Shown: positions 55,564 to 64,000, numbered from the stretch's first letter. The stretch is DNA of 64,000 bases from a virus (IMGVR_UViG_3300017791_000355:32001-96000), one strand, 5' to 3'. Notes: a model not told the origin generated them from the letters alone. Numbers and translations: made by a program.

Positions 55564-56437
55564 TTGACCCCCGTCTCGAGCTCGAGCGCGGCCTTCTCGA
55601 GTTGTCTGGCGAGCTCGCGCGCGGTCCCGGCAGTGAGCGGATAGTCGTCGCTCCAGGGTCGGGTAGGGTCGTCGGCGGACAAGACGATGACGCCCTCGCG
55701 CACTTCGACTTCGAGGAGCGTGGGGATGGTCTGGAGCGACATCAGTGATCCCCTCCACCGAAGTCCCCGCCGCCGGAGTCGCTCAACCACGAGTCGCACG
55801 ACCCGTGGTCGAGCCCGGTGTGGTTGACCTCCGCGCACGCGGCGTGAGCGCCGTGGTCATGCGATCCGGTGTCGGAGTCAGCGGGCAAGATCACGTTGGA
55901 CCACACATGATCGTCCAAGAAGGGAGTCGCAGCCGTGGTCCCGGAGAACGACCAGTCGCCATGCGGACGCCGGTACTTGCGCGGTCGCCCGGACCTGCGA
56001 CGAGAGCGAATCGACAGAGCGACCGCGATCCAGACAATCGCGGCGGCGGAGGCAACGGTGATCAGGAACCAGGTGGCATCCATGTCCAGTGTAAACACCT
56101 GGACGGTCCAGCTGCTTTCACGAAAGTGGAGGGAGGTACTCGATCCAGTCGCTCTCAAGTACGCCGGACGCCCACTGGGTCCGCAGCGCGTAGTAGGCCC
56201 ACGGTTGTCCGGCGTCCCCTGGAAATACGTCCGGCTTCTTGATTCCTGGACAGTTGCAGCGCCCCAGTTTCCACGACGGCCACCCAGCTACCGCGGCCGC
56301 CGCACGCTCGGCCGAGCGCCAGACCTTCCTCGAGTCCTCGTCCAGGTCGTCCCAAGGCTTGAACTTGATCCGAGGCTCGGGACGCTCGTTGGACCGTGGG
56401 CTCCCGATCTCGATCGGGTAGTCGCAGTCGGGGCAGG

Positions 56438-56743
56438 TCACAGAGAGTCGCCGGCCAACTGCTCGCGTACCTTACCAGCCGCGATCCAAACCACGAACCT
56501 ACAGGCAGCGACCACACCGCGCTCGAACTGGCGCGGTTTGAAGGTCACGAACCCTAGTTGTTTGGCCTGCTTGATCGCGTCCTTATCGCCAGTAATCACA
56601 ATTTCGGCATCCTCCGCGACAGCCCGATCGAGCCAGGTCTCGTCTCGTTCGGGCCCTTCAGCTGCCACTACCACCTCGTGACCAGCCACGCGCAACACAT
56701 CAATACCGCGCCTGCCAACGCACACGTCGACAGCGATCTTCAC
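56438..56743 (-). CDS. PIN-domain protein (DUF5615/Mut7-C-like)
   Basis: IAVDVCV...LRVAGHEV...RDETW...VITGDKD. Confidence 0.7.
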   Translation of the reverse strand: MKIAVDVCVGRRGIDVLRVAGHEVVVAAEGPERDETWLDRAVAEDAEIVITGDKDAIKQAKQLGFVTFKPRQFERGVVAACRFVVWIAAGKVREQLAGDSL

Positions 56744-57369
56744 GCCGCACCCGGCCCGTCGTCCTCGACCGGTCCGTCGCACTCCGCGCACGCGACCTTG
56801 GGATCGTCGTTGCACGCCGAGCACAGCGGGACGAGCTGGAGGTGACCGATCTTGCGCGGGCGGACACCCTTGACCTCGGCCTGTTTCCACGTCGCTTCTG
56901 CTTCGCTCCGTACGCTGAGGACGGCAGACCACGGAAGCGTGCATTGGAAAGGTGCGCCGCTGAACGTCAGCGCTCCAGAGATGCCGCGCTCGTCGACGAC
57001 GAGGTCAAGAACAGGGGGGTGGAGATCGTAGCCGATTCGCAGGACGAGTGCCGGGTCACTCTTGTACTTCGGAGGTACCACCACGTTGTCACACGTGGCG
57101 TTGACGGCGACGAGAACCGAGCCTCGAGACAGCATGTCCTGGAGCGGTTCAACGTACAACTTCGACCACACGTCGTCGACGGTCATCGCGATGCACGATT
57201 CCTCGGTCGAGACCCTGTCCCCGACGAGAGTGTCGAGCTCCGCCTCGAGTTCCGCGAGTTGCTTCCTGGCGACGCGCGCCATCGACTCGCCGAACGTGAC
57301 GTTGTTCCTCGCGACCACGATCGCGTGGCCGACCTCGATGATGCGTTCCTTGCTCACGATAGACTCCAA
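56740..57369 (-). CDS. sspB: ClpXP adaptor SspB-like protein
   Basis: VVVP...LVLRIGY...LVVDERGISGALTFSG...LPWSAV; tail RPRKIGHLQLV. Confidence 0.75.
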   Translation of the reverse strand: MESIVSKERIIEVGHAIVVARNNVTFGESMARVARKQLAELEAELDTLVGDRVSTEESCIAMTVDDVWSKLYVEPLQDMLSRGSVLVAVNATCDNVVVPPKYKSDPALVLRIGYDLHPPVLDLVVDERGISGALTFSGAPFQCTLPWSAVLSVRSEAEATWKQAEVKGVRPRKIGHLQLVPLCSACNDDPKVACAECDGPVEDDGPGAA

Positions 57370-58271
57370 GAAATATCAAGTTGCTGTTGTGCGAGAATGC
57401 TCTCGGCCATGTTCCAGAGTTCGACCAAGCGGTGAGCGTGAGCTTGGGCCATCACCTCGAAGAAGCTGCCAGGGCGAACGTCTTCGCCGAACGTCTCGCG
57501 GAATTGCCGGACTATCTGTTTCCTGATCTGACGCGTCGTCGGTATCCGACGCTTCCACGCAATGTCCGCCGCGGTGGTCGTCGGATTGTGGAGCGCGTTT
57601 CCGCTGGCCCCGTACCGGATCGGCGGGACGTCCTCGTGTCCGGGGGCAGGTACGTCGTGCTCACCGAACATGGACCACCACGCCTGGAGCGCCTCGCGCA
57701 CGAGGTACATTACCTGTCCGGTCGGGACCAGGTCATCGAGCATCGCGTCGTGGAGCACGACGAGTGTCTCGCGGAGAGTCCGAAGTGCCGACAGCGTGGT
57801 CACTCTTCCCCTAGAAGCGTCGTGTCGGCGATAGTCGCAATCGTCGCGCGCAGACGATGGTCCACCTGCTGCCCGACGCTGCGATTGAGCGCCTCCGATC
57901 GAATCTCGCGGAGCGCCTTCCGATATCGCTCGAGTTCGTCGAGCAGGTTCACGAGAGTTAGTTTCGTGATCGGTACGCTCTGCCCGGAAGCGTCCGACCA
58001 GTTTGGTCCGTCTCCCCAACTCGCGAGCCACTCGCGAAGGGACTCGATGTGTTGATCGTCGATCATACCACACTCCTCCAATACTCAACCCACCGTTCGT
58101 TAGGTGGTTGCCACGTCGTGAATGCGGTCTCCACGTCGTACAGCGTCCAGTGCAGCTGACGCCACGCATTCAGGTACTGGCCGGAGTCGCGACACCACTC
58201 GTTGCCGAACTGCTGGGTCTGCTGAACGGCCTGGTGGAGGACGCCGGCGACGAGTTGGAAAACGAACTCGC

Positions 58272-59525
58272 TCACGCTGCGCTCCTCGCTTTCTCCGCCG
58301 CGCATTCGGAGCACTTCTTGCTGTCGTGACTTCGTGTCCACGGGACAAGGCGCCCGTCGTGGACGACCTTCTCCGCACCCTTCTGCCAACAATCCATCAG
58401 CGTCGGGTCAACCTCAACGGCGTCCGCGACGTCCGGGCACACGCGGCGGAGGCACGCCTCCATGACCTCACTGATGCGCCACGCACCGTCACTCCCCATC
58501 GAACGTGGGTGTTCGCCGATCAACTCGTCGTGCTGGAAGACCGAGATGTGCGAGTCGAAGAGCGGCGAGTCGAGGCCCGCGTACCGAGACCGCTTGCTGT
58601 TCGGGAACAACATGTCCGGGACGCGAACTGTCCGGTCCCAGCACTCTCTCGTACAGATCCGGTGGGCCATCTTGGCCGCGTCGGCGAGCAGTCCCGAGAA
58701 GAGTGTGTTCGAGATGACGCAGAACGGGGTCTCCGCGCTCGCCCCGACCTTGCGGATGCGCCCTGAGTAGAACTGCGCGATCTGCATCGGGTCGAGTTGC
58801 TGCCACGGCTCGAAGATCTCCTGCCACCACGGCCAGAGGTCGAAGAACCTCGGCTCGATGACCATGCCGTCGTCCACGCAGCCCGACGTGTACTTGAAGT
58901 ACTGCTCCTGCTCGGGCCACTGGCGCTTCCAACCGTTCTCGAACTCGACGCCGAGTTCGAGGCACGAGGCGCACATCGGCGTGATGGGACGCTCGCGACC
59001 AGGCTTGCCCCAGGTCCTTCGCTTGTTGCGACCGTCCTTGCCACCGCAGTACTCGCCGCGCATCAGGGCGCAGAAGCGGAGTCCCTTGAACCCCGGGACG
59101 AGATTGCCGTTGCCGTCGTCGACCATCGACGGTCCCTCCGGGTGCGGCGTGTCTTCTCCCTGCTTGCGAGCCTGGAACACGAGGGTCGGAACGCCGCCGC
59201 CGCCCTGCTTGCTGAAGTTCCACGGCTTCGAGCCCTGGCGACAGTTTGCGTGCATCAGGATCTTCTTGGAGAAGTCCTTCAGGTCGATGCCCAGCATCGT
59301 GCACGCGAGCGCCGCGTGAGGGTCGATCTTCGCGAGCAGCTTCTTCGCGAGCTCAGAGTGGCCGACGATCCAGAGGCAGACCTGGGCCCAGGTCACCATC
59401 TCACCGGCCTTGTAGTCTTCCGAACTGAGGACGCAACCGTCGTCTAGCGGACGCGCGATGGTCATCATGCGCGCGGCGTTGGTTGCCGAGTCGGTGACGT
59501 CAAAGTTGGGGATGTCCTGGATCAC
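58272..59525 (-). CDS. family A DNA polymerase, C-terminal (palm/fingers) part
   Basis: Motif A SEDYKAGE, motif B RQGSKPWNF, motif C QHDEL. Confidence 0.85.
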   Translation of the reverse strand: MIQDIPNFDVTDSATNAARMMTIARPLDDGCVLSSEDYKAGEMVTWAQVCLWIVGHSELAKKLLAKIDPHAALACTMLGIDLKDFSKKILMHANCRQGSKPWNFSKQGGGGVPTLVFQARKQGEDTPHPEGPSMVDDGNGNLVPGFKGLRFCALMRGEYCGGKDGRNKRRTWGKPGRERPITPMCASCLELGVEFENGWKRQWPEQEQYFKYTSGCVDDGMVIEPRFFDLWPWWQEIFEPWQQLDPMQIAQFYSGRIRKVGASAETPFCVISNTLFSGLLADAAKMAHRICTRECWDRTVRVPDMLFPNSKRSRYAGLDSPLFDSHISVFQHDELIGEHPRSMGSDGAWRISEVMEACLRRVCPDVADAVEVDPTLMDCWQKGAEKVVHDGRLVPWTRSHDSKKCSECAAEKARSAA

Positions 59526-59812
59526 CGGAACCCTCCGTCGCTTCGCTCGGTGCGACGGTCCTCGTCACCGGGGTCATGGAGCGTGCGCTGCGCGTTGCAG
59601 CGACAGCCTCCCATCCACCGAGCGCCGCCGAAAACGCGCTCGTCCGGCTCCCAATGTCCGTCCCAGCACTTGTATCTGCCCATTGCGTAGGGGCACGCGA
59701 CGTGCTGGTCCCTGGGTTTCACGACGAACGTGGGGACCTCGTCGCAGACCGAGCAGGGCACGTCGATGCCCGCACGACCCAGTTCCACGCAGACCTGACA
59801 GGGCTCCATCAC
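59522..59812 (-). CDS. small Cys-rich hypothetical protein
   Basis: Coupled ORF; CxxC motifs. Confidence 0.5.
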   Translation of the reverse strand: MMEPCQVCVELGRAGIDVPCSVCDEVPTFVVKPRDQHVACPYAMGRYKCWDGHWEPDERVFGGARWMGGCRCNAQRTLHDPGDEDRRTERSDGGFR

Positions 59813-60300
59813 CTCAACTCCTCGTCAACCTCAATGCCGATGTGCTCGCGCACGACTCGCGCCACGCGTCGCGCGAGGCGCTCGATCTCTCTTCGGGACT
59901 TGCCGTCGTCCGCGTACTCGCGAACGAGCCTCTGTCCTAGCCCCGAGCCCCTCGACATCCCCGCCGCCGCGTATCTAATCAGGTCGTTTCGCTGCTTGTC
60001 GGACAGGTCTACCCCGAGCAGTTCAAGAGCCCGCAGTTCGATTGCCATCGCGCGGGCCTCCTCGACGTCCCTCCACGCGACTGCCATGCGGTCGAGGGAG
60101 CTCGCGATCGACGTGTACATCACGCTTCGCGGCCGTGCGCGGTGCCCGAGCGAGTACCAGTGCGCGAGTTCGTGCACCGTCGACTCGACAGTGTCGAGCG
60201 CGCCGTCGAACGCGTTCCCGAACGCGGTACCCATGTCCCACAGCGCGAACAGCGCCGTGCACGCGCCCTCGAGCTCGGTGAGTCGGACCTGGTCGATCAC
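59809..60300 (-). CDS. hypothetical protein with HExxH motif
   Basis: VHELAH; GTGA overlap with the polymerase N-part. Confidence 0.55.
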   Translation of the reverse strand: MIDQVRLTELEGACTALFALWDMGTAFGNAFDGALDTVESTVHELAHWYSLGHRARPRSVMYTSIASSLDRMAVAWRDVEEARAMAIELRALELLGVDLSDKQRNDLIRYAAAGMSRGSGLGQRLVREYADDGKSRREIERLARRVARVVREHIGIEVDEELR

Positions 60301-61970
60301 GCCGCCGCCCCCTCGACGATCCACTCGCCAGGCTGGAGCACGTAGTCGATCGGCACCTGGACGTGCTCGACGCGAGGACCGCGGGCGACGAAGCACTCGC
60401 GAAGCGACGGGATGTACTGGCCGGTCTCACGGTCGACGAAGCCTGGCGCCCTCGGAAAGAGCTGCACGTAGCCTCTGTACGAGACGCGTCCGTTCTCGAG
60501 GAGGACGTTCGACTTCAGGAAGATTCCGACGTCGCGCCACTTCTCGGGAACGCCGAGGCTCGTCACGCACGTCTCAGCGTGCGGGAACTTCTTCGTGCCG
60601 TGCTCGCCGCAGTGCACACACACGCGCCCGGTACGGAGGTACGGCACGTAGTCCTTGAGAACCTTGCCGTCTTCCCCGAAGTCACCGTACGACATCAGGA
60701 ACTCGTCGCCACTCTCGTGGCACGCGTCGGCGCCGAACGAGACGCCACCGCCCTCGGTCCGCGGCACGTCCTTCGTGAGGAGTAGCCCGGTCCCGTCGCA
60801 CGTGACCTCGCCTTCCGGTCCCTCGCAACCCTTGAGCTTCACGTTGTGATGAAGGACTCGCCCCGCGTTCTCGCACGTCGCGCAGGTCGCCACGGTGGGC
60901 TCCTTGACCTTCCCACCCGCCTTCCACGGCTGACACCGGCCCTTGCAGTCCGGGCAGCGCAGCGTGGGCTGCTCATGGTGGGGGACCTTCCCCTCGCCGG
61001 CGCAGTGAGGGCAAGGCTCGGTCGACCCGTACTCGACCGCGATCATCTTCTTCAGGATCGCCTGGCTGACTGAGCCGTCGTCCCGGATGATGCCGGCGTC
61101 GATGAACTTGCCGATTGACCCGGCACGCTTCTTCTTGAAGTACGTCTCGATGACGTCGACCTTCGACTGGTCGACCCACAGGCCGTGCGCGTCGCCGAGC
61201 GCGAGGCAGATCGCGGAGTAGGTCTGCGTCGCGACCTCGTGGAGATTCAGGTGCGGACGGCGGACGAGGCACTGGGAGGAGAAGCGCGTCGAGCCGCAGT
61301 CGAGGCACGCGCCCGCGTCGGACCAGTTGTGGCTCGAGGAGACCTTGGGTAGGACCCCGATCTGGGCGAGCGTGACCTCGTGGGTGTTCTTGCCGTCGTC
61401 GACGGGGTAGTCGCGCGCGGCCTGCGGGAGCTTCTCGAGCGGCCAGTCGTCGAACTCGCCGTAGCGCAGCTTATACTCATCGTTCGACTTCGCGTCCTGT
61501 CGGCCGAGCACGAGGTCCACGACCATGGACAACGAGTACGAGCCGGGCTTGCCGGTCTCGGGATTCTTCAGCGGTCCGCCGGTGCGCGGATCGCGGCCGA
61601 GGGTGCCCTCCGCGATCGCGCAGAGGACTTGGGTGACCAGGGGATCGAACACGCGGCCCTGCTCGAGCAGCGCGAAGACGTGCGGCCAGATGTCGATCCC
61701 GCGTCGCGCGAACTCGTCGGCGATCACCAAGACGTCGAACGCGAGGTTCGCGTTGTTGAGGATCGCGCTCGGGTCCTCGAGGACCTGCGCGAAGAGCTCG
61801 AGCACGTCGTACTTCGAGAGCAGGGCCCCGACGATGTTCCCCTGGGGATCGAGCCACCCGGCCGAGCCGAGGACGAGCTTGGGGACGGGGACGCCCTTCT
61901 TGATGGCCCAGGTCTCGGTGTCGATCGAGACGGCGGTCTGGGCGAAGGTCTGGAGGCGAGCGAGCCGCAC
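60297..61970 (-). CDS. family A DNA polymerase, N-terminal part (3'-5' exonuclease and thumb) with Zn-finger insertions
   Basis: DTET, NLAFD, YPVDD exonuclease motifs; NGRVS...LRECFVAR; CxxCxGxG repeats. Confidence 0.85.
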   Translation of the reverse strand: MRLARLQTFAQTAVSIDTETWAIKKGVPVPKLVLGSAGWLDPQGNIVGALLSKYDVLELFAQVLEDPSAILNNANLAFDVLVIADEFARRGIDIWPHVFALLEQGRVFDPLVTQVLCAIAEGTLGRDPRTGGPLKNPETGKPGSYSLSMVVDLVLGRQDAKSNDEYKLRYGEFDDWPLEKLPQAARDYPVDDGKNTHEVTLAQIGVLPKVSSSHNWSDAGACLDCGSTRFSSQCLVRRPHLNLHEVATQTYSAICLALGDAHGLWVDQSKVDVIETYFKKKRAGSIGKFIDAGIIRDDGSVSQAILKKMIAVEYGSTEPCPHCAGEGKVPHHEQPTLRCPDCKGRCQPWKAGGKVKEPTVATCATCENAGRVLHHNVKLKGCEGPEGEVTCDGTGLLLTKDVPRTEGGGVSFGADACHESGDEFLMSYGDFGEDGKVLKDYVPYLRTGRVCVHCGEHGTKKFPHAETCVTSLGVPEKWRDVGIFLKSNVLLENGRVSYRGYVQLFPRAPGFVDRETGQYIPSLRECFVARGPRVEHVQVPIDYVLQPGEWIVEGAAA

Positions 61971-61972
61971 TG

Positions 61973-62446
61973 TCCAGGAAGAACGCCTGGACCGGGGTCG
62001 GAGCTTCCGTCAGATCTCCGGGGTCGGCGCGATTTCTCGGACGTGCTCGGGGATCATGCGAAGACCCTCCTCGAGCGAATCGACGAAGGACCACGACCCG
62101 TGTCCCTCGCACGAGCACCCACCATACTCGGCGTGGATGATTCGTCCATCTGGCAGAACCGCGACCATGTTCGCGTGGTGGTGACCCCAGCCCTCGGAGT
62201 CGTCGTAGTGCTCGTAGAGCAGCGCGTAGCCGCCGTCGAGGGCGGTCTGGAGCGCCTGTTGGGAGCCGCCCAAGTCATTCGTGATGCATCCGTCGGCGCA
62301 GGTCCGGTATTCCTGGGGCATCGCAGTCACCTCGAGCACGAGCTCGCGGACGTCGCGGCCTTCCTTGAGGGCGTCCAGGAGCACGGAGATGAGGTCGTCG
62401 CGCGTCATCCAGGATAGAACGCCTGGACCTGGGTCGGAGCTTCCGT
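61973..62446. repeat. 38/39-bp direct repeat (61973-62010 and 62408-62446) flanking one gene
   Basis: TCCAGGA(T)AGAACGCCTGGACC(G/T)GGGTCGGAGCTTCCGT; one indel, one mismatch. Confidence 0.9.
62010..62408 (-). CDS. hypothetical protein
   Basis: ATG at 62408; YGGCSC motif. Confidence 0.6.
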   Translation of the reverse strand: MTRDDLISVLLDALKEGRDVRELVLEVTAMPQEYRTCADGCITNDLGGSQQALQTALDGGYALLYEHYDDSEGWGHHHANMVAVLPDGRIIHAEYGGCSCEGHGSWSFVDSLEEGLRMIPEHVREIAPTPEI

Positions 62447-62454
62447 TCAAATAT

Positions 62455-62560
62455 TGCTCACAAGAGCCCTTGTCCTACCTTGCCATGCCTAACCCGGCCT
62501 TTGCCCAACTTGTCGTGCCACGCCGTGTCACGCCTAGCCTGACCCGGCCCTTGCCCAACC
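62455..62560 (-). ncRNA. (GGY-NN)n repeat unit B with 3' hairpin, candidate guide RNA
   Basis: About 18 GGY/GAC triplets at mostly 5-nt spacing, ending GAC-AA-GG-GCTC-TTGT-GAGC. Confidence 0.7.
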
Positions 62561-62576
62561 AATTCAAATCAGAGAA

Positions 62577-62653
62577 TGCGCACAAGCGCCCTTGTCGTGC
62601 CACGCTCCGCCGCGCCGTGCCACGCCGTGCCACGCCTGGCCTGGCCGAGCCAA
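62577..62653 (-). ncRNA. (GGY-NN)n repeat unit A with 3' hairpin, candidate guide RNA
   Basis: 12 triplets in perfect 5-nt register, ending GAC-AA-GG-GCGC-TTGT-GCGC. Confidence 0.75.
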
Positions 62654-62657
62654 AACT

Positions 62658-63170
62658 CTACTTACGTGACGCAGCCACGGGCGTCGAACGCTCACGTGGT
62701 CGAGGCTCTGGAATCTTGCGCCGTAGTTCACGATTCACGGCAGACACGACGCGTCCTTGGACTTCGAGGTCGCGATCGTGCGCGACGACTTCATCGGACG
62801 CGAGTTCAGACCGTGGAACGTCCTGCTTGATGGCGAGCGCTCGACGGAGCTTCCGTCGACCGTTACGAGATGTCTTGGTGCTGTAGGCGCTGGCGCCGGA
62901 CGCAGTCAAGAGCATCACCCCGACGTCCGAGTCGATCTTGACGGCGACGTGCATTGGAGGGTCGCGTCTTAACCACTCGGCTTCGACGAGTCCCTTGAGT
63001 TGAAGGCACCTGGTGCTGTACTCAGGCGTGTCACGCGTGACTCGGAACATGCGTTCGATCTCGTGAACCGCGATATGATCACCTCGCTCGAGTCGAGCGA
63101 CCCGCTGAGCAGGAGTGATCTCCTCTTCGGTCTCAGGCGTGCTCTCGACGGTCTGCAACTCGAGATTCAT
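62658..63170 (-). CDS. unknown accessory protein coupled to the RAMP-like gene
   Basis: ATGA overlap with the RAMP-like gene stop; 170 aa, basic C-terminal half. Confidence 0.75.
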   Translation of the reverse strand: MNLELQTVESTPETEEEITPAQRVARLERGDHIAVHEIERMFRVTRDTPEYSTRCLQLKGLVEAEWLRRDPPMHVAVKIDSDVGVMLLTASGASAYSTKTSRNGRRKLRRALAIKQDVPRSELASDEVVAHDRDLEVQGRVVSAVNRELRRKIPEPRPRERSTPVAASRK

Positions 63171-63730
63171 CCGATCACCTCGAACCGACCGAACTTCGGT
63201 CGCCAGTCGCCGACCCCGGTAATGCCGGAAGTCTCGACGATGTCGACGAGCTGATCGTCGGACTTGATGATGGAAGGATCCCACTGCACGTCGAACGTGC
63301 ACTCCCACGATGGAAAGATCGGTCGCGCGCGAATGACGCGGTTTTGCTTCACCTTGACCCCAGCAAGCTTGAGGTAGTTTCCGCTATCCCAGAGTCCTTC
63401 GACGGTCTTGGGACCCGGATACTGGAGGGCCCAATCACCCTCGATGATGATCCCACCCTTGACTTGCTTGCCCAGCGTGAGCTTCCTGGCTCCCTCTTGA
63501 AGGGCTCCCTCGAGGACCTCACCGGGTAAGCAAGGCGCGCCCTTGTTGTTCACGTAGAGTCCGCCATTCCACTCGCACCGGCGAATCTCCAGCAGATCGG
63601 CGTCAGTCTTCTTCTTCTTATCGGTCAACTTCTTGAGCGCTCGCGCCATCTCATTCAGAGGGTCGGCGAGTTGCCCGTTGTGCATGATGAGAGGGGTGAG
63701 GCCGCGAATCGTGAACGTGGTGGTCTTCAT
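63167..63730 (-). CDS. stand-alone Cas7/RAMP-like RNA-binding protein
   Basis: TFTIRGLTPLIMH, PCLPGEVLEGAL, RARPIF, terminal Gly-rich loop GVGDWRPKFGRFEV. Confidence 0.8.
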   Translation of the reverse strand: MKTTTFTIRGLTPLIMHNGQLADPLNEMARALKKLTDKKKKTDADLLEIRRCEWNGGLYVNNKGAPCLPGEVLEGALQEGARKLTLGKQVKGGIIIEGDWALQYPGPKTVEGLWDSGNYLKLAGVKVKQNRVIRARPIFPSWECTFDVQWDPSIIKSDDQLVDIVETSGITGVGDWRPKFGRFEVIG

Positions 63731-63829
63731 GTAAGCCTTGGAGCGTTGACGTCTTGGCGTGATTGCCGTTGTCGTGCTCGCAAGAAGGGAACTCCCTGGA
63801 CAATGCTCCGCTTTCAAAAATCGACCCAA

Positions 63830-63896
63830 TGCTCACAAGAGCCCATGTCTTGTCCGGACCCGCCACGCCTAGCGACGTCTCGCCTAGGCCTGCCGT
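63830..63896 (-). ncRNA. degenerate (GGY-NN)n unit C with the same 3' hairpin
   Basis: 10 pentamers in register, ending GAC-AT-GG-GCTC-TTGT-GAGC. Confidence 0.6.
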
Positions 63897-64000
63897 AAAT
63901 TCGCGTAGTGCGTCAGGATCTCGGCGTGACAGCGCAACGGCGAGCACCAACACGCGAGGACCTTCCCCCGGAGCTCGGGCAGCCGAGCCATCAAATCTGC
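63884..64000 (-). CDS. DUF4326-like protein (3' end, partial)
   Basis: ELRGKVLACWCSPLRCHAEIL. Confidence 0.75.
   Translation of the reverse strand, partial: ADLMARLPELRGKVLACWCSPLRCHAEILTHYANLRQA

Follow-up and report, generated by a model that had tools for sequence, protein, structure and literature searches.

A covarying 12-nucleotide hairpin as the probable 3' tail of three vrRNAs in a phage-encoded VIPR locus

Three intergenic units of a virus genome end in the same small hairpin, which in one of them carries a compensatory base change. The locus raises the question of whether this element is an RNA structure under selection and, if so, what it does at the end of a repeat tract. The DNA analyzed here (the window) is a stretch of 64,000 nucleotides, bases 32001-96000 of a 135,661-bp IMG/VR virus record (IMGVR_UViG_3300017791_000355). 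Over 61000-64000, the part read here, the minus strand is coding, and all of the window features described below lie on it.

The hairpin was characterized by direct reading of the sequence, pattern scan, folding, covariation, and register parse. It is GCGC-TTGT-GCGC, followed by A, in unit A (62578-62589); GCTC-TTGT-GAGC, followed by A, in unit B (62456-62467); and again GCTC-TTGT-GAGC in unit C (63831-63842), where the trailing A is at 63830. The layout common to the three units is GAC-A(A/T)-GG, a 4-bp stem, a TTGT loop, the complementary arm, and A. Direct reading of the sequence thus confirms the three hairpins that the first-pass annotation had placed at these coordinates on the minus strand. 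The change of a T-A pair to a G-C pair that it had reported for unit A is also real, in that units A and B differ at only two positions of the 14-nt core and both positions belong to that one base pair. Exact matches to the 14-nt pattern GGCNCTTGTGNGCA number three, whether the window or all 135,661 bp of the record are scanned, and they are on the minus strand; they mark the 3' ends of three period-5 GGY-NN arrays and occur nowhere else in the genome, and the remaining matches in the window require two mismatches.

Folding energy by itself is poor evidence for the hairpin. Within an 18-nt context it comes out as the fold of lowest energy (-5.8 to -7.1 kcal/mol, z of -2.1 to -2.4), but in a 41-nt context the three units fold no better than shuffled sequences (z of -0.3, +0.1, and -1.3), and in unit A a rival fold that pairs ACAAG with CTTGT is there preferred over the 4-bp hairpin. 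A search of 56000-64000 against Rfam, with E values up to 5, returned no match, so this region holds no hammerhead, tRNA, or known sRNA family. Scans of 61800-64000, around the units, found neither sigma-70-like promoters nor sites resembling intrinsic (Rho-independent) terminators; such terminators need 5 bp or more in a GC-rich stem and then a U-run, and the hairpin has a 4-bp stem with no U-run directly after it. The exact 20-nt tail pattern had no match in our collection of viral contigs.

Upstream of the hairpins, the sequence repeats strictly every 5 nt, each repeat being GGY and then two bases that vary, and a periodicity scan of the whole genome found such GGY-NN arrays confined to this locus. 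The tract of unit A (62590-62651, from the register parse and the periodicity scan) has 12 clean pentamers, running from GGC-TC to GAC-AA, and a terminal GG; it starts 6 nt past the stop codon of a candidate accessory gene described below. The tract of unit B (62468-62559, from the register parse, repeat family D3, and periodicity) comprises 18 pentamers in a single register and a terminal GG, and it falls into two sub-arrays, with 8 and 6 canonical units, that both begin with GTTGG-GCAAR and close with GAC-AA-G. No hairpin follows the first sub-array, whose end reads ...GGC-AC-GAC-AA-G, so a single hairpin closes all of unit B; the claim that each unit is capped by a hairpin accordingly stands for units A and C and for unit B as a whole, but not for the first sub-array of B. 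Unit B can be read in three ways: as duplicated internally, as a long guide (16 units, with two degenerate ones), or as a remnant that has no tail and is joined to an entire vrRNA (as these RNAs are called in the system identified below). The tract of unit C (63843-63894, parsed back from its hairpin) has ten pentamers in one register and a terminal GG and is degenerate, with GGY in 4 of its ten triplets and GNC in the rest, while its tail is intact; the periodicity caller, set at 6 of 8, missed it. The upstream gene, which by eye looks DUF4326-like, has its stop codon overlapped by the first units of the tract. Unit C may be decaying or inactive; alternatively, its repeat code may be relaxed.

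The gene that sits between unit C and units A and B (63167-63730) identifies the system. It encodes a lone RAMP/Cas7-like protein of 187 amino acids, stop included, that belongs to phrog_4652, a family of unknown function (E = 8e-49). The only solved structure that it matched is PDB 36pp_D, the "SUSP1 Vipr protein," with E = 8.4e-51 for a profile of 15 homologues and E = 3.9e-24 for the window protein alone, aligned over residues 1-185. In the cryo-EM structure of SUSP1 Vipr, H17 on the RRM sheet and the G-loop contact two guanines, and an arginine of the thumb also contacts the vrRNA (10.64898/2026.04.26.720927). H17 and the G-loop GVGDWRP(K/R)FGRF of the window protein align with SUSP1 Vipr, and H17, R136, and GVGDWRPKFGRF fall on the residues that contact the vrRNA there (H17, the thumb Arg, and the D-W-R of the G-loop). 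Seven residues, H17, R136, G169, G172, P178, G181, and F183, are invariant across the 15 homologues. The AlphaFold2 model has a pLDDT of 91.8, and its best Foldseek fold matches are Csm3/Cas7 subunits. Because the gene between the units matches SUSP1 Vipr and the RNA-contact residues are kept, we take the locus to be a VIPR system and the gene to be vipr. Several other readings of the repeats had been entertained, namely, a TRAP-like or CsrA-sponge protein-binding array, two-tetrad G-quadruplexes, 10-bp DNA iterons beside replication genes, and PAM-decoy DNA, and all were dropped once the match to PDB 36pp showed the flanking gene to be Vipr.

VIPR (Viral Interference Programmable Repeat) is a CRISPR-related form of phage DNA silencing that was first described in 2026 preprints (10.64898/2026.04.26.720920, 10.64898/2026.04.26.720927, and 10.64898/2026.10.15.759431); it is known so far from preprints that are months old. 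The Vipr protein is a single-RRM RAMP. According to these, seven VIPR types exist, with accessory genes vap1-6, and the vrRNAs, ~100-nt RNAs that co-purify with Vipr, have 9-16 YNNGG repeats coated by Vipr protomers, one protomer per repeat in SUSP1. The NN dinucleotides read double-stranded DNA with one base skipped between them, and binding silences competing phages or satellites. The GGY/NN tract is reported to be "capped by a structurally conserved" 3' tail that "parallels crRNAs," and the tract "precedes an invariable 3' extension," the tail, which is a pseudoknot in the SUSP1 clade (10.64898/2026.04.26.720920). Cryo-EM shows the SUSP1 pseudoknot tail capping the 3' end of the vrRNA (10.64898/2026.04.26.720927), and a shared tail makes a solo vrRNA "competent for Vipr complex formation" (10.64898/2026.10.15.759431). 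The preprints analyze tail structure for the SUSP1 clade only, where it is a pseudoknot. The tracts in the window, with 12 repeats in A, 8+6 in B, and 10 degenerate ones in C, agree with the published 9-16 YNNGG repeats and flank vipr on the same strand. This layout is also seen elsewhere: a scan of viral contigs gave 23 loci with vipr homologues, and period-5 GG arrays flank the homologue on the same strand in 21 of them, as they do in most metagenome loci.

Comparative evidence decides that the small hairpin is real. A metagenome scan yielded four closest relatives (L027-L030), with Vipr identities of 58-68%, in which arrays were called from the GG period only. In most of them the last GG leads into a 4-bp stem, a U-rich loop of 4-5 nt, the complementary arm, and A. 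The stem-loop is GCTC-TTGT-GAGC in L027, CCTC-TAGT-GAGG in L028, with GCCC-TTGTT-GGGC in an upstream unit of the same locus, and GCCC-TAGTC-GGGC in L029, where one array has a 3-bp stem only (GCC-TAGTT-GGC); L030 has both GTGC-TTAG-GCAC and GACC-TAGTT-GGTC. The stems of the relatives are thus GCTC/GAGC, CCTC/GAGG, GCCC/GGGC, GGCC/GGCC, GTGC/GCAC, and GACC/GGTC, and their loops are TTGT, TAGT, TTAG, TAGTC, TAGTT, and TTGTT. There are seven different stem sequences, and pairing is kept in all.

In an alignment of 7 tails from 5 genomes, 100% of the cells are paired and three of the four pairs are changed on both sides. The covariation score of this alignment is 0.738, compared to 0.154 in shuffles (0 of 500 reach the observed value) and at most 0.07 in slid controls. 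With 15 distinct tails found by cmsearch and aligned to the covariance model, 98% of the cells are paired and the score is 0.805, compared to 0.19. One tail (L029_3, in alignment A3) had been chosen with a pattern that demanded pairing, and the test was for this reason redone on the arrays called by periodicity only. Seven of these nine have GG, four strict Watson-Crick pairs, and a 4-5 nt loop within 32 nt; as a control, the virus genome yields that motif at a rate of 2.8% (binomial, 5e-10). Since L027 and the three copies in the window have a stem in common by descent, these four were scored as a single event, and the independent events are the other stems. Covariation in homologues had been named beforehand as the check on this structure, and these scores bear it out; the selection on RNA structure that the first-pass annotation had proposed is supported by the complete pairing and by the pairs changed on both sides across the relatives.

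Taking these observations together, we consider it very probable that each of the three hairpins is the 3' tail of a vrRNA, and that these vrRNAs are the guides of a phage-encoded VIPR system composed of vipr, a vap-like gene, and the flanking vrRNAs. What is observed directly here is that the protein is homologous to Vipr, that pentamer tracts are present, and that the hairpin has a set position and covaries among relatives; transcription, loading by Vipr, DNA silencing, and capping by the tail are presumed from the published work on SUSP1 and P. fulva. By analogy with SUSP1, Vipr protomers would coat each transcript, one per GGY-NN pentamer, holding the GGY bases and presenting the NN dinucleotides. 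The dinucleotides would then read double-stranded DNA, with one base skipped between successive pairs, and binding to a target would silence transcription of a competing mobile element. The constant handle would consist of the 4-bp stem, which begins on the nucleotide after the last GG, and its U-W-G-U loop, along with the near-constant C-A-(A/T)-G-G before it and the trailing A; it may bound the 3' end of the Vipr filament, set its register, and protect the end. The hairpin would in that case correspond in function to the SUSP1 pseudoknot and to the crRNA repeat handle. The analogy to a crRNA 3' handle, for processing or capping and as the mark of discrete RNA genes, had already been drawn from the sequence, and it appears to be well founded, as the units flank the Vipr gene and the published VIPR layout is the same. 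That idea is a rediscovery of the published vrRNA tail and is not new; what is new here is a minimal hairpin tail in place of the pseudoknot, in a further member of the VIPR family.

The likeness to the type II VIPR systems of the SUSP1 clade is close in several respects. Both have a structured constant element directly 3' of the last GG and a GGY/NN tract of ~12 units, the tracts lie on the coding strand and flank vipr, and the Vipr proteins are homologous, with the same RNA-contact residues. In the tail of the SUSP1-clade phage wV8, a 4-bp first stem (GTAG...CTAC) likewise begins on the nucleotide after the last GG. The differences lie in the tail, in the accessory protein, which has no detectable similarity to that of the SUSP1 clade, and in the extent of Vipr identity to the SUSP1 protein, which is only ~30%. 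The SUSP1 tail is ~40 nt long and combines a hairpin with a pseudoknot in which AGTCTCA pairs with TGAGACT downstream. No ACAA that could form an H-type pseudoknot of this kind follows any of the three copies here, and folding shows no second conserved helix; since the 4-nt loop is without a downstream complement, the tail is a bare 12-nt hairpin. A pseudoknot between an upstream ACAA and the TTGT loop was also considered and rejected on geometry, as it would leave no nucleotides for the connecting loop.

Outside the VIPR family, a near parallel is the 3' handle of type I-E and I-F crRNAs, which is bound by Cas6: it too is a small 3' stem-loop on a guide bound by RAMP-fold proteins, with a constant handle joined to a variable guide. 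Unlike those systems, the locus has no CRISPR array, Cas6, or spacer acquisition genes, and its code is made of gapped pentamers rather than a contiguous spacer. The (G/U)AG-NN repeats that bind TRAP in the Bacillus trp leader are also similar, with a triplet and two spacer bases in each of ~11-12 units and one subunit per repeat. However, TRAP is a beta-wheel rather than a RAMP fold, the spacer bases of its repeats are uninformative, a 3' handle is lacking, and the outcome is attenuation, whereas VIPR targets DNA.

The hairpin is a feature of this clade and not a universal feature of VIPR. Family-wide, a hairpin directly follows the last GG in 17.5% of cases, compared to 11.3% of controls, and the folding energy of the tails does not differ from that of controls (p = 0.09). 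Given this modest enrichment and an energy at control level, the type of tail appears to be clade specific, and the role of the SUSP1 tail is not simply transferable. The unit before the hairpin is nearly constant, C-A-(A/T)-G-G, and in 206 distinct array ends (loci L004-L114) the last unit is CAAGG in 40, CAGGG in 17, CATGG in 14, and TAAGG in 10. This bias (81 of the 206 ends) makes the final NN look like part of a constant handle rather than of the guide. The triplet before it was said to be always GAC; this is so in the present genome and in L028, but L027 has AAC and L030 has GGC.

Tails vary widely from clade to clade, and other loci carry other kinds of tail and spacer. Minihelices resembling tRNA form the tails in three VIPR loci (L079:1691-1953, L012:5103-5262, and L007:4625-4688), with a 7-bp acceptor-like stem stacked on a 5-bp T stem and a GGUUCGAUUCC T-loop (z of -2.3 to -3.1). 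The Rfam tRNA model matched one of them weakly, at 23.9 bits, below threshold, and the word "tRNA" is absent from the text of the VIPR discovery paper (10.64898/2026.04.26.720920). L007 has a 5-bp mini hairpin ahead of its tRNA-like module, an order that suggests punctuation of the RNase P/Z type. The array units of L016, L017, and L078 (e.g., L017:4660-5700) are spaced by GGTCGGTGGTATATTAAGG, and because this spacer contains the extended -10-like TGGTATATT, each unit there may have a promoter of its own. Short AU-rich spacers are seen elsewhere, ACTTTAGGG in L014 and ATTAGATTCAAGG in L020.

The alternative that survives best is that the hairpin is mainly a signal for forming RNA ends, a nuclease stop or cleavage mark at which a long vipr-vap-vrRNA transcript is cut. 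We regard this as unlikely to be its main role, though it is compatible with the reading as a handle. Processing modules do occur in other VIPR loci, as the published hammerhead ribozymes that punctuate some arrays (2026 VIPR preprint) and as the tRNA-like minihelices of L079, L012, and L007; the sigma-70 scan found no promoter-like sites between the units, and an AU-rich single-stranded stretch follows each hairpin. On the other hand, the mini hairpin of L007 lies between the last GG and the tRNA-like module, so in that locus the hairpin and the processing signal appear to be separate elements, and the conserved U-W-G-U loop, the flanking GG, and the trailing A are what would be expected of recognition by a specific partner.

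It is far less probable that the palindrome acts as double-stranded DNA, as an operator for a dimeric regulator such as the vap-like protein. GCTCACAAGAGC is a DNA palindrome, and the adjoining protein has weak matches to winged-helix-type folds, but an operator would keep its half-sites, and here there are seven stems with complementarity at 100%; the element is also fixed in position and strand relative to the repeat tract. We give hardly any credence to the proposal that the functional fold is instead the overlapping hairpin ACAAG-GGCK-CTTGT, which would sequester the last repeat unit in an attenuator-like switch. That fold is the minimum-energy one for unit A in the 41-nt context, at -8.8 kcal/mol, but none of its pairs is changed on both sides, 83% of its cells pair, three of the seven tails are broken at one position, its covariation score is no higher than that of shuffles, and it would compete with Vipr for the last GGY-NN unit. 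Three recent paralogous duplicates with one chance double change and no selected structure could explain three copies in one genome, two identical and one differing in a single pair, but that reading, already disfavored, is scarcely tenable when the stems found at this position in independent genomes differ from one another and pair in full.

As tails of vrRNAs, the hairpins in this locus and its four close relatives indicate that a 12-nt element supported by covariation can fill the position of the SUSP1 pseudoknot. This narrows the requirement for a tail to a duplex stop directly after the last GG and a short U-rich loop. It also offers a compact handle for trial in reprogrammable silencing constructs and a simple annotation signature for vrRNA 3' ends in high-GC phages; the understanding of the VIPR system itself is unchanged by this locus. 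More tentatively, the 4-bp hairpin with its conserved U-W-G-U loop and the C-A-W-G-G last unit might be all that a distinct VIPR clade needs as a handle for loading and capping, with the class of tail acting as a code for which Vipr loads which vrRNA, a possibility that we consider rather unlikely. If such a compatibility code is true, the diversity of tails (mini hairpin, long hairpin, pseudoknot, and tRNA-like module) would be an axis of conflict between phages, hijacking by solo vrRNAs would be limited, and a minimal tail would be defined for engineering.

Scans for what the guides might recognize concerned the virus itself and our viral contigs. The best match of a guide read with a 1-nt skip in the virus's own genome is at the level of shuffled-guide controls, and under any skip rule this genome contains no self-target beyond a trivial 3-nt self match. 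Two pattern scans for guide A found no exact match in the viral contigs collection.

The start codon of the candidate accessory gene (vap, for vipr-accessory protein; 62658-63170, 170 amino acids) overlaps the stop codon of vipr in the sequence ATGA. It was recognized as a candidate because homologues adjoin vipr elsewhere, in six other loci; the one in L028 shares 35% identity (E = 2e-21). Members of this family are ~140-170 amino acids long (window 62658-63170, L028:3646-4125, L030:1186-1638, L025:4780-5202, L004:5003-5449, L012:4579-5031, and L031:1248-1724) and have the motifs L-KGD-I, LTD-EA-YN, and H-R-LEVQGR in common. In the AlphaFold2 model (pLDDT of 84.8), a small alpha/beta domain at the N terminus leads into a long helical hairpin. 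Searches of Pfam, PADLOC, PDB sequences, and Foldseek gave nothing significant, the matches of the model to winged-helix regulators being weak, with E above 0.2, and comparison with the accessory protein of the SUSP1 clade detected no similarity (BLAST E of 6.7; hhalign probability of 2%).

Downstream of the VIPR locus, in 58272-61970 of the window and also on the minus strand, there is an open reading frame of 557 amino acids with a weak match to a DnaJ-type CxxCxGxG zinc finger, which is followed by two more open reading frames of 417 and 195 amino acids.
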